NCBI GenBank assembly: GCA_951406725.2
Contig: OX597815.1
Location: forward strand, 164,982,001-165,046,000
Origin: Octopus vulgaris
Lineage: Eukaryota
Length of the DNA: 64,000 bases
Direction of reading: 5' to 3'
In this document: positions 34,041 to 62,364 of the stretch, one piece after another
How positions within the stretch are numbered: position 1 is the stretch's first letter
Layout: each line of letters starts with the position of its first letter
The notes under the pieces: generated by a model
What the model saw: only the letters and a program-made list of their open reading frames with translations
What the model was told of the DNA's origin: nothing
Databases searched by the model: none
Position numbers and translations under genes: made by a program

Positions 34041-34225
34041 TCCCCCAATATCGATTGACAACCGATGCAGGTGTGTTTACGTCCCCATAGCTTAGCGGTT
34101 CGGCAAAAGACCGATAGAATAAGTACTGGGCTAACAAAGAATATGTCCTGGGGTCGATTTGATCGACTAAAGGCGGTGCTCCAGCATGACCATAGTCAAA
34201 TGATTGAAACAAGTAAAGGAGTAAA
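33776..34225 (+). mobile_element. Full-length CORE-type tRNA SINE with internal (TA)n(TG)n
   Basis: Head ggcgtaggaatggctgtgtggtaag, CORE-like accttgggcaagt, tail gaaacaagtaaa. Confidence 0.9.
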
Positions 34226-34765
34226 AAAAGTACATATATATACAGATGCATATGTGTGCGTGTATTTGTGCACGTGCGCTTGCGTGCGTATATACGTATA
34301 CACACACATACACACACATATATATATACACACACATGTATGTGCATGTATAGATGCATATATATAATGCTCATATCATCATCATCATCATCAATTATTT
34401 CGGGTTTTTGCCATTTATTCTGTCTGAACCAACGTCCCGAGATCCGTCACTCCACTAACTCAGACATCTCTCCTGCATACATAATCAGTTGTTGTTTTTT
34501 TTATGCCCAGTTAACTCTCACAGTTCAGGATCACTAAGCTCTATCAAGAGAGTAACTGGAACACGTTCATAGGGGTGATGTCCATGGTTTGTGTAAGCAG
34601 AAAGACAGAGAAAAAAAAAAGCTCTCATATTTTCTTATCTTTTAATCACAAGAGAAGGTAGTAACCATCAGAAGCGTTGCAAGATTGTGTGCCGCCAGGG
34701 TACGCAAGTCTCAGAGCGCTTGCAAAGGACATGGCCGATGTACCTTCTTCCAGACTCAAAAAGTA

Positions 34766-35201
34766 GGATCTTTTCGGTTTGAACGGCAGTTTTTAACATA
34801 ATTTCTAGATAACTAAAAAATTTCAAACTTCGTATACTGGTAGAATGTGTTTACAAAACATCTTTTTCTCTTGGCTTTATTGAGAAAATTCTATTGTTTG
34901 TAAGATATTTGTTGTTTTTTCTTCAATTTCTGCAATTTCAACCAATCACTGACGTCTATTGAGTTAAAAAGCATTCTGTGCCGTATGAATATGTCCCTCG
35001 TTTAAGAAACAGATTGGGTTTATTTACATTTGTGAAGAAAAAAAGATACCCTTCCCCCACCCCTTATCCTAACCCTAACCCTAACTAACCCTAACCCTAA
35101 AACAGATTGAAATGCAATAGATCGATTCTAGGGTCATAATTATGGGTGACAATTTCATATGACACCGCTAGAAAAAACTGCCGTTCAAACCGAAAAGATC
35201 C
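34766..35201. mobile_element. Non-autonomous TIR element with internal (CCCTAA)n
   Basis: Perfect 29-bp TIR ggatcttttcggtttgaacggcagttttt. Flanked by direct repeats at 34654-34765 and 35202-35288. Confidence 0.92.
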
Positions 35202-35561
35202 GAAGGCAGCAACCATCAGAAGCGTTGCAAGAGTGTGAGCCGCCAGGGTACACAAGTCTCAGAGCGCTTCCTCCAGACTCAACAAGTAAAAATAAAAGTC
35301 ATCATAGTTTTGCATCAAACAGCAAAGCTTAGATAGCAACTAGCACGTCTTTGCTTCACCGTATTTCTCGTTTAACTTTTGATACACACTGCATTGAATG
35401 CATTAATACTAACTTAACTATTGTCTTTCATATGGATGGCGTCACTGAGTAATTAACTTTAGTGAGTTATTTTTGTTTTTAAAAATGCTCATGTTTTCAC
35501 GTCTATTTGTGTACAATATTTGTACAGCTCAATGATTCTCCCATTACCGTGGAGAGTAAAG

Positions 35562-35976
35562 GGATCTTTTCGGTTTGAACGGCAGTTTTTTCTAGCGGTG
35601 TCATATGAAATCGTTACCCATAATTATGACCCTAGTATCGATCTATTGCATTTCAATCTGTTTTAGGGTTAGGGGTGGGGGAAGGATATCTTTTTTTCTT
35701 CACAAATGTAAATAAACCCAATCTGTTTCTTAAATGAGGGACGTATTCATACGGCACAGAATGTTTTTTTTTTACCTCAATGGACGTCATTGATTGGTTG
35801 AAATTGCAGAAATTGAAGAAAAAAAACAACAAATATCTTACAAACAATAGAATTTTCTCAATAAAGCCAAGAGAAAAAGATGTTTTATAAACACATTCTA
35901 CCAGTATACGAAATTTAAAAGTGTTTAGTTACGTGGAAATTATTTTAAAAAACTGCCGTTCAAACCGAAAAGATCC
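35562..35976. mobile_element. Second copy of the same TIR element, in inverted orientation
   Basis: Same 29-bp TIR. Flanked by direct repeats at 35498-35561 and 35977-36042. Confidence 0.92.
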
Positions 35977-36665
35977 CACGTCTATTTGTGTACAATATTG
36001 TATATCTACTCAATAATTCTCCCATTACTGTAGAGAGTACAGTGCCGTCTAAGCTTCAATGAGGACATTACTAAAACTGAATCACGTTCGTAGTTGTCTC
36101 CCGTATTTGCGGAAATGATTAAGATGGCAATAATAGGCATTGAGCTAAAATTGTCTTTCCCCTCATTGCATTGGTATTTTTAATTAGACTTTTGATACTC
36201 ACTATACATATGCAAATATATTAACATAAAGTTTACTGACGTTTTTCATGCTGTTGGCATCGCTTAGTACGTAAACCTATTTGTTGTTGTTGTTATTATT
36301 TGTAATATGAGATACATACCCTTTTGCTTTCAGCATATCAACACCTCATCACTTTTGATGAACCTAATGCCTTCTTTGCCCTCAATTTGGTAATAGCCCA
36401 ACTAAGCATACTGAAAATAGACTGTCACTGCGATAATTAGCTTCTCTGTTGGTTCCATTTGGAGATGTTCCTCGCATTCCTATTCAAATTCTTCTTTCAG
36501 CAACCCGAACGGTAGTACTTCAATGCCTTTTTTGTTTCATTATTACCAAAAGTAAGTTCACAAACATAGTTTTAGATACAATTCTCCACAGCGGCATCTT
36601 GATTCAAACAAATGTACTATCTTGTAATTAAGATGACTTCAAGATTTTCATCTTTATATCATAGA

Positions 36666-36965: not shown

Positions 36966-36967
36966 TT

Positions 36968-37292
36968 AAAATAACTTAGCGGTTCACCAATGTAGAACAA
37001 TAAAATGACTTAGCGGTTCGCCAATCGAGATCGATCAAATAAATTAGCGGTTCGCCAAAGGTCAATAAAATGACCTAGCGGTTCGCCAAATGTGATCGAT
37101 AAAATGACCTAGCGGTTCGCCAAACGAGATCGATAAAATGACTTAGCGGTTCGCCAAACGAGTTCGATAAAATGACTTAGCGGTTCGCCAAACGGGATCG
37201 ACAAAATGACTTAGCGGTTCGACAAACGGGATCGATAAAATGATTTAGGTGTTCGCCAAAGGAGAACGATAAAATGACTTAGCGGTTCGCCA
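36968..37292 (+). repeat. 34-bp minisatellite, about 9.6 copies
   Basis: Unit aaaatgacttagcggttcgccaaacgagatcgat, starting at 37067, 37101, 37135, 37169 and so on. Confidence 0.95.
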
Positions 37293-41462: not shown

Positions 41463-41979
41463 GGATCATTATCTTTTGACCGACAGATTTAAAAAATAAT
41501 TTTTTGTAACTAAACACTTTCAAACTTCGGACACTGGTAGAACGTGTCATATGAAACATCTTTGCATTTTTGAGAAAAACTTATGTTTACGAAGTAATTT
41601 CACGTCACGGTAATTTCAACCAATCAATGACATGTATTCAGCTGAATAAAATCACTGCCGCTGTTTATCAACAACAACTATCGGCGGTGTATTTTTCGTT
41701 TGTCACTGTTATTTATGACATCGTTCGTGCGTTTGTACTGGCTTTAGCTTTAAGGTTTTAGGATTAGGGTTTTAGGGTTAGGGCTAGGGTTAAGGTTTTA
41801 GGGTTAGGGCTAGGGTTAAGGTTTTAGGGTTAGGGTTGTCATAAATAACAGTGACAAACGAAAAATACACCGCCGGAAGTTCTTGTTGACAAACAACGGT
41901 AATAATTTTTTTCAGCTGAATACACGTCATTGATTGGTTGAAATTACCGAAATAGGACTACTTTGTCGCGGAAATTTCC
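41463..41979. mobile_element. GGA...TCC element with ~100-bp internal inverted arms around a TTAGGG-variant array
   Basis: Arms at about 41608-41720 and 41837-41949, with ttagggttagggctagggttaagg repeats at about 41755-41837. The left part is homologous to the 34766 element (aaacttcg..actggtagaa; atttcaaccaatca). Confidence 0.75.
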
Positions 41980-61044: not shown

Positions 61045-61297
61045 TAGTTATGAATTGAACATATTAATTACGCAAAGATGCTTGGAAATGTTGTAGTTTG
61101 GTCGAACACTGAGTCATGATGTCTATCAAAGTAATATTAATTGTCTTTAATTTCTGGAGAAAAGAAAGGTAAAGTTGACCTTGGTAGAATTTAAACATTT
61201 GTCCTCATCTTGTTTGTTGTTAACACGTTTCAGCTGATATACCCTCCAGCCTTCTTCAGGTGTCTTGGGGAAATTTCGAACCTAAGGTATTTTTCGA

Positions 61298-61337
<40 letters not shown>

Positions 61338-62040
61338 GTTGTTAGTGTTCAGGTCACTGCTTGGAATTGAACTCGGAATCTTGGGGTTAGTAGCCCACGC
61401 TCTTAACCACGCTCTTAACCCACGCTCTTAATATCTGTCGAATGTAAATAATGTAAATAATGTACATAGTTCCTCATCTCTTAAATATAGAACTGTGGTA
61501 CTTGTTTTATCAATCCTGAGAGGATGAAAAGCAAAGTTGAAGTTGGTGGGATTTGAACTCAGTTTGTAAAGAACCAGAATGAATATCATTAACTTTGGCA
61601 GAAGTTAAACTCAGATCCTAAAATATTTAGAACAACGATTTCTTTCCAAAAAATCACAAATCTATTGTCTTTTAAAATTGTTTCCCACATTTCATTTTCC
61701 CTTCAGATATTTCAAAATGTGGTCTTTTAAATTTTCAGCTCACTGACTATTAAGTCATATTTGAATTGAATATCCTTATGTTTGGCTTTTTTTTAACATT
61801 TAGTTTTATGGTTAGTGCCTGAATTAAACTGACATATCAAAGTAATTTACGATTTATGAATTGAACATATTAATCATGTGGTTTATGAACTGAACATATT
61901 AATTACACGAAAATGCTTGTGCTCATCGGGGAAATATTGTTGTTTGGTCAACCATCGAGTCACAATGGCTATCAAAATAAAAATAATTGTCTTTAATTCC
62001 TGGGAAAAAGAAAAGTAAAATTGACCTCAGCAGAACCTAA
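61045..62040 (+). repeat. Old ~150-bp direct duplication (about 61045-61195 vs 61882-62040)
   Basis: Both copies share ttatgaa.tgaacatattaattac...aattgtctttaatt.ctgg.gaaaagaaa.gtaaa.ttgacct. Confidence 0.75.
61197..61497 (-). mobile_element. Composite element: tRNA-like head + (AAT)n + hammerhead-like module
   Basis: Minus strand gtggttaagagcgtgggctactaacccc..gagttcaattcc, then gacac-CTGAAGA-a-ggctg..cagct-GAAA-cgtgtt. Confidence 0.7.
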
Positions 62041-62364
62041 AAGTATATAACTAAATACTCAGGATTTATATAAATAAGTGCCTGAGTATTTATATAAACT
62101 AGCTGGACCCATGAAAAATTCACGGAAAACATAAAAAATGTAAGCATCTGTAAATTACGTGCGGGTGCCATGAGAAATATTTCTATATTGTGACAGTTAC
62201 AGAATATAGAAAAAAGTGTAAAACTGATAACTATATAATCCAACCAAAATATCTCAGTTACGCAAAGGTAAACAGAATTACTATTTAGCCTTAAAATACA
62301 TCGTACATATTCAAAGAATCTTCTTGGTTTAGTGGTATGGAACGTTCTTCTGGTATTCTTTTAT

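Follow-up and report, generated by a model that had tools for sequence, protein, structure and literature searches.

Two neighbouring MITE copies exactly bounded by long direct repeats: a possible case of secondary duplication by alternative transposition

What places a direct repeat of 112 or 64 bp on either side of a short transposon of a kind that normally duplicates only a few base pairs of its target? This question is raised by two neighbouring copies of a terminal inverted repeat (TIR) element in the window, by which we mean the whole 64-kb stretch of DNA analysed here, repeat-rich animal DNA with 37% GC and many SINE-like and simple repeats. A preliminary description held that DDE transposases make target site duplications (TSDs) of about 2-11 bp, and that the long repeats therefore point to an unusual integration route and perhaps to an unclassified transposon group. 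The range given is no hard limit, considering that IS481EU leaves TSDs of about 15 or 25 bp (PMC10045372) and HERV-K rarely 61-450 bp (PMC5488345).

The two inverted copies of 436 and 415 bp, with their perfect TIR of about 29 bp and telomere-like repeats, were confirmed by alignment and by a count of the TIR (Table 1). The copies, E1 and E2, share 389 of 408 aligned bases (19 differences), the telomere-like tract is 28 bp shorter in E2, and all four element ends read GGATC. The 29-mer occurs four times in the window with 0 mismatches, a number that none of 100 shuffles equalled. The longest frame of this short TIR-bounded element encodes 91 aa and lacks a Pfam match, and both copies are MITEs by structure, being short, non-coding, TIR-bounded and of high copy number. 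A DDE_Tnp_IS1595 domain was found in none of the 113 window frames (11 + 102) scanned with Pfam, and no autonomous partner or transposase linked to the TIR was found in these frames or in the viral, metagenome and prokaryote collections. The exact TIR pattern had no match in those three collections; a looser pattern had none in viral contigs and two in metagenome contigs, both rejected as chance matches to GC-rich contigs with no TIR pair at the match. An Rfam scan of the window gave 0 matches.

Table 1. Coordinates of the elements, their flanking repeats and the candidate 8-bp target sites in the window.
Feature	Position	Strand	Remarks
DR1a, left copy of repeat 1	34654..34765	+	112 bp; 50% GC; ends at E1 TIR
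E1, non-autonomous TIR element (MITE)	34766..35201	+	436 bp; perfect 29-bp TIRs 34766-34794 and 35173-35201
Self-insertion 8-bp site in element, GATATTTG	34904..34911	+	= 35830-35837 in E2; used in relatives
Telomere-like (CCTAAC)n tract inside E1	35068..35100	+	
DR1b, right copy of repeat 1	35202..35288	+	87 bp; without 25 bp; starts at TIR
Spacer between the two insertions	35289..35497	no strand	209 bp
DR2a, left copy of repeat 2	35498..35561	+	64 bp; last 8 bp 35554-35561 = candidate original TSD
E2, second MITE copy, inverted	35562..35976	-	415 bp; perfect 30-bp TIRs
DR2b, right copy of repeat 2	35977..36042	+	66 bp
Last 8 bp of DR2b	36035..36042	+	7/8 identical to 35554-35561

Each copy is also, as first described, exactly adjoined by an unrelated long direct repeat (DR1, 112/87 bp; DR2, 64/66 bp), with all four TIR-side repeat ends meeting the TIR at zero offset and similarity ceasing at the far ends. 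The two copies of DR1 align with 80 identities, 7 mismatches and one 25-bp gap and those of DR2 with 57 identities, 6 mismatches and 4 gap bases, the copies within each repeat thus being about 91% identical. Between DR1 and DR2 there is no relationship (local score 11-12), and neither has a further good copy elsewhere in the window. Among 44 non-low-complexity direct-repeat pairs in the window lying no more than 3.5 kb apart, DR2 is the only one with a TIR pair enclosed at its alignment edges (a match of 30/30, against 3-12/30 for all others), the DR1 alignment ending at its gap. A sliding null, of limited use, gave 56 strong flank matches at 1254 positions, 15 of which began at the right edge, all in simple-repeat arrays. 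No TSD of 2-12 bp was found directly at the ends of E1 or E2, and no excision footprint is visible at either.

Public sequencing runs allow the locus to be followed in relatives. Part of the region is held by 20 of the 24 runs listed, which bear the organism labels A-D, and four of the 24 were aligned to it: X4 (B), X18 (C), X19 (D) and X21 (A label, raw reads). The evidence is drawn from those entries that were listed, namely 15 of 114 joints, 18 of 1473 loose-end rows, 40 of 65 letter rows and 24 of 85789 pieces. In total, 43134 contigs of X4, 17908 of X18 and 23964 of X19 aligned to the region, most of the depth falling on the elements. Summed depth in X4 is about 1-5 million on the elements against 35-54 on single-copy junction contigs, which is not a copy number, and we read it only as a family of tens of thousands of copies, an estimate from depth and not a copy count. 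Loose ends pile up exactly before 34766 (164, 125 and 155 contigs in B, C and D) and behind 35976 (137, 109 and 108 contigs), which fixes the family boundary. Contigs of B span 34529-34788 and 35180-35380, thereby covering both E1 junctions and both DR1 copies, a D contig spans 35202-35447 (DR1b), and C contigs spanning 35348-35561 and 35968-36092 hold both DR2 copies, including the junction of TIR and DR2b. The structure is therefore no assembly artefact. DR1 is older than the split of A, B and D while DR2 is seen only in A and C, and the two probably arose at different times. No empty-site joint occurs among the 15 of 114 joints listed, which carries no weight. In run X21 just 11 reads aligned, none more than 95% alike, despite the abundance of the family in the relatives' contigs; this shortfall suggests a filter or label issue, and the run is uninformative and was left unused.

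Could the elements by chance have hit the junctions of tandem duplications that were already there, or be misassembled? The window does hold one insert-free tandem duplication, a head-to-tail repeat of about 146 bp that is 84% identical (27150-27437), so such junctions exist at about one per 64 kb; however, an insertion at the precise base of such a junction would be needed twice, the junctions show no short TSD, and an artefact is at odds with repeat copies that are about 9% different and with the junction contigs in the B, C and D runs. This explanation is very improbable. Judged from the substitutions, DR1 appears about equal in age to the element (19/408 between copies): between its two copies, 7 of the 87 sites are mismatched in A, as are 10 in B and 5 in the inferred ancestor, with one listed difference in each B contig lacking its letter. 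Considering the exact abutment, the absence of an inner short TSD and the age of DR1, the evidence supports long repeats that are tied to the element rather than pre-existing tandem duplications.

It does not follow that the long repeats stand in place of a short TSD, and several lines of evidence suggest that the family inserts with an ordinary 8-bp stagger. Six loose-end consensus strings (34766 and 35976 in three runs, 108-164 contigs each) describe the flank of one element end, the two sites being equivalent because E2 is inverted. Across the six strings the flank directly before GG reads S-A-A-W-W-T-T-S. C or G is the plurality letter at position -8 in 3/6 strings and at -1 in 4/6, as opposed to 0/132 at -9 to -30, with a chance of such a plurality of 0.2-1.5% per column. 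The palindrome score of the flank peaks at 8 bp (0.78), with 0.61 at 7 bp, 0.64 at 9 bp and 0.03 at 4 bp. Agreement within the strings is weak (0.37-0.39). Nor are they independent, as orthologous copies recur from run to run and the window's own letter is left out of the -1 column. The four junction 8-mers of the long repeats sum to 18-19/32 on this consensus (P about 0.02-0.05 relative to the window), which is what transposase target sites at the two ends of each repeat would predict.

The element has also been its own target in relatives. One self-insertion junction occurs with three variants of the TIR end and begins exactly at 35830, which is one of 4 among 407 E2 sites scoring at least 7/8 on the flank consensus, and a partner joint lies in register 8 bp away in one variant contig, with a one-base slip relative to the host site. 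However, 8 of the 9 listed self-insertion sites, including 35833 only 3 bp away, score 3-5/8, several of the positions being uncertain. Nested self-insertions at element coordinates 35830-35848 appear amplified as composites, the joint 35201->35833 having a depth of 3025 in B and occurring also in C and D.

A third indication comes from E2 itself. To the right of E2, the alignment of single-copy contigs in B and in D starts in both cases precisely at 36035, where the last 8 bp of DR2b begin, with 21 unaligned letters leftward of it; the overhang of TIR-ending contigs is 22-23 letters, and a simulation gave a median of 22-23. These 21 letters may thus be the TIR, the alternative being an indel near 36034. 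If so, B and D would carry E2 with a plain 8-bp TSD and A and C with the long duplication, B being read right of E2 only. Most copies of the family probably carry a fixed short TSD, which is a judgement and not a count. Of the unusual integration route proposed earlier, the tie between repeats and element therefore stands, but long repeats in place of a short TSD are doubtful given the 8-bp consensus, the self-insertion and the boundary at 36035.

At a probability of about 0.5, our reading is that this is an abundant MITE, likely of Merlin type, that inserted with 8 bp duplicated and whose long repeats were added later by transposase acting on a resident copy. On this view, the first insertion of each element would have duplicated 8 bp of target in the usual manner. 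Once the locus had been replicated, a left end from one sister and a right end from its counterpart would be excised jointly, in what is termed hybrid-element or sister-chromatid transposition, and the excised ends joined to a second target site 56-104 bp off on the sister or homologue. The DNA from the old site to the new would thereby come to lie on both sides of the element, bounded exactly by the TIRs, and the old 8-bp repeat would be repaired across such that no footprint remains. E1 and E2 would have undergone this independently, and probably not at the same time. Renewed transposase action on an element already in place best explains the putative 8-bp stagger, a plausible target site at each repeat end and the apparent 8-bp allele together. 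The absence of a footprint is explicable as well, as Muta1 sites are commonly repaired precisely across their 8-bp TSDs (PMC5225508).

An account that explains two of two more simply is that the long repeats arose in one step, with the transposase joining the ends to opposite-strand sites 60-110 bp apart and the interval being copied by replication or gap repair. Nearest to the idea of the preliminary description, it would make the family the animal equivalent of IS1549/IS1634, whether or not some of its insertions duplicate 8 bp. Both full-length copies in the window have exact-ended long repeats with no inner short TSD and no footprint, and DR1 is about as old as the element. Precedents include IS1549/IS1634 at 8-514 bp (PMC2266710) and IS481EU, in which TSDs of about 4, 15 or 25 bp are mixed within one family (PMC10045372). 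Nonetheless, the flank consensus and self-insertion indicate an 8-bp stagger, and B and D seem to carry E2 with just 8 bp repeated, which would need a later deletion halting exactly 8 bp from the repeat end. We consider a one-step origin unlikely, though the strongest of the rivals.

Unequal crossing-over between same-orientation copies 56-104 bp apart on different haplotypes, themselves products of local hopping, would also leave a chimeric element flanked by the interval. It is compatible with an 8-bp allele in B and D, and close family neighbours do exist, as seen from end-to-start joints in 7, 2 and 3 contigs (B, C and D; among the joints listed). The repeats are slightly more diverged than the elements (13/150 and 19/408); however, the excess is not significant (P 0.10), was rejected as proof of a two-haplotype origin, and can be explained by local mutation rate, as DR1 also differs more between A and B (7/199) than do its surroundings (11/709, P 0.09). 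Crossing-over further requires that four insertions fell within 1.4 kb and that two crossovers took place within elements of 430 bp, and we consider it improbable. Concerning the timing of DR2, the approximately 4 differences in 56 bp exceed what an origin after the A/B split predicts at 2% divergence (P 0.03; 0.14 at 3.5%), a point against secondary duplication. Routes other than those considered here share a slight probability.

Secondary duplication by alternative transposition has known parallels, in that P hybrid element insertion and Ac/Ds sister-chromatid or reversed-ends events yield variable direct duplications that end exactly at transposon termini (PMC3744419). The Ac cases described in the same source extend from 8 kb to 5.3 Mb and need two elements, whereas here the distances are 56-104 bp, the elements are single MITEs and two of two neighbours are affected. 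In maize, only 3 of 7611 hAT insertions (0.04%) have a transposon-bounded duplication (PMC3744419), and two of two neighbours therefore needs a much higher family or local rate. For HERV-K (HML-2), 8 of 451 TSDs exceed 10 bp (about 2%), six of these being 61-450 bp (PMC5488345), a rate at which two neighbours are expected at 3e-4, a point that also favours one-step origin; across the known background rates, of HERV-K and maize hAT, the expectation is 3e-4 or less. The window was chosen for this pattern, and such selection tempers the rate argument, but a high family or local rate of long duplications still stands at about even odds. Somewhat short of even, we place the broader proposition that a Merlin-like MITE of tens of thousands of copies leaves 60-110-bp duplications at no fewer than 10% of its insertions (at least 10%), be it in one step or by repeated action.

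Other systems share single traits with the locus. IS1549/IS1634 are likewise elements of the TIR/DDE type with long repeats that differ per copy in a group where the norm is short, but they have prokaryotic IS4-like transposases and ends that start in C (PMC2266710). HERV-K and IS481EU demonstrate that eukaryotic DDE enzymes are able to leave repeats of more than 11 bp (PMC5488345; PMC10045372); HERV-K, however, is an LTR element in which such events are rare (PMC5488345), and the TSDs of IS481EU are discrete and reach about 25 bp at most, compared with 112 and 64 bp here and a putative 8 bp (PMC10045372). The non-LTR elements Dualen and R9 also have long TSDs (10.1101/2022.05.23.493040). Long variable direct repeats are seen in both window copies, and no further copy was readable on both sides. 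Among the matches listed from the open-licence PMC and bioRxiv literature, we found no animal TIR family that routinely makes duplications of more than 50 bp.

With regard to classification, an unclassified group, as had been suggested, is doubtful, for the ends fit Merlin. The element probably works like Merlin, in the sense of analogy and not of membership; on the same understanding, likeness to a MULE is unlikely and any other kind a little less likely again. Some MULEs have short TIRs. MULE/Mutator elements make TSDs of 8-10 bp, comparable with the 8 bp suggested here, but their TIRs typically exceed 100 bp, as against 29-30 bp, and Muta1 has little target preference (PMC5225508). Merlin, which is related to IS1016/IS1595, has GG ends, TIRs of 24-462 bp, TSDs of 8 or 9 bp and often internal tandem repeats (PMC8101967), which resembles the GG...CC ends, 29-30-bp TIR, putative 8-bp stagger and internal tandem repeats of this family. 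A TSD of 8 or 9 bp is absent directly at E1 and E2, the 8 bp for the family being deduced from the flank and self-insertion evidence and the 36035 boundary in B and D, and flanking duplications of 60-110 bp are unreported for Merlin in the available passages of PMC8101967. In the supplement of that paper, Octopus is named 443 times among Merlin-related proteins, and Ptychodera flava contigs with DDE_Tnp_IS1595 ORFs contain the same telomere-like TTAGGG/TTAG tract and a recurring start, GGCATCATTTT, a weak, low-complexity likeness (PMC8101967). A 12-base word common to the element and the P. flava Merlin contigs was set aside as probable chance, not being colinear with the telomere-like tract. 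A 2026 repeat paper on Octopus vulgaris lists Merlin, MITE and unclassified TIR families, and the term "TSD" is absent from the portions of its text and supplement that were available (PMC13282606). The family may already be named, for example in Repbase or Dfam. Overall, the observation is real, element-linked and unusual, and it probably reflects no new superfamily but a side effect of a MITE of known kind.

TSD length is a main criterion in DNA transposon classification, and the family-wide rate of long duplications is what separates a curiosity from a notable variant. If rare, the locus would be a neat natural case of alternative transposition only. If common, they would make the MITE a little-studied but measurable origin of short tandem duplications and deletions in its hosts, and annotation tools that rely on TSDs would overlook such copies or assign them wrongly. 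It would then be the first animal TIR transposon family that generates short tandem duplications as a matter of routine across the genome, a eukaryotic parallel to IS1549/IS1634, for whose kind of long variable duplication the available passages of the IS papers offer no mechanistic model (PMC2266710; PMC10045372). Tens of thousands of dated copies in several sequenced relatives would make the question directly testable. Insert-free tandem duplications might in that case be excision scars of such elements, the repeat at 27150-27437 being a candidate.

Further features of the window touch on the family and its surroundings. An older relative of the element at 41463-41950 is 70-80% identical to its left part, starts with GGATCATTAT and contains TTAGGG-like repeats of 26 bp enclosed by an internal inverted repeat of 113 bp (41608-41720 / 41837-41949); its right TIR was not found. 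The TTAA beside this relative at 41463 had raised the reading of a Kolobok, whose RR...YY ends are matched by GG...CC (PMC9587614), but the flank consensus led us to reject it: Kolobok is TTAA-specific with a 4-bp TSD (PMC9587614), and none of the six consensus strings ends in TTAA. Another GG...CC TIR element with a TTAGGG-like middle, at 21508-22079, has TTAG or TA as its TSD according to the boundary chosen and sits in a mariner remnant (PF01359, 21069-21428; 3 homologues). Besides this remnant, the Pfam scan of the 11 + 102 frames returned only a reverse-transcriptase remnant and three weak sub-threshold matches.

DR1 (34654-34765) is exon-like in its 50% GC, two open frames and a preceding pyrimidine tract plus AG, and a protein search of one frame, a weak test, gave no support for DR1a as an exon. 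An older pair at 35326-35481 and 36143-36298, about 67% identical, brackets E2 with low-copy repeat depth in relatives and may be two remnants of an old repeat. A direct pair at 61048-61195 and 61883-62041 is 77% identical, its members standing 687 bp apart with SINE-like pieces and no TIR pair between. Finally, 36967-37292 is a 34-bp minisatellite of 9.7 copies, the core of which occurs once more at 34091-34110 within a dispersed repeat.
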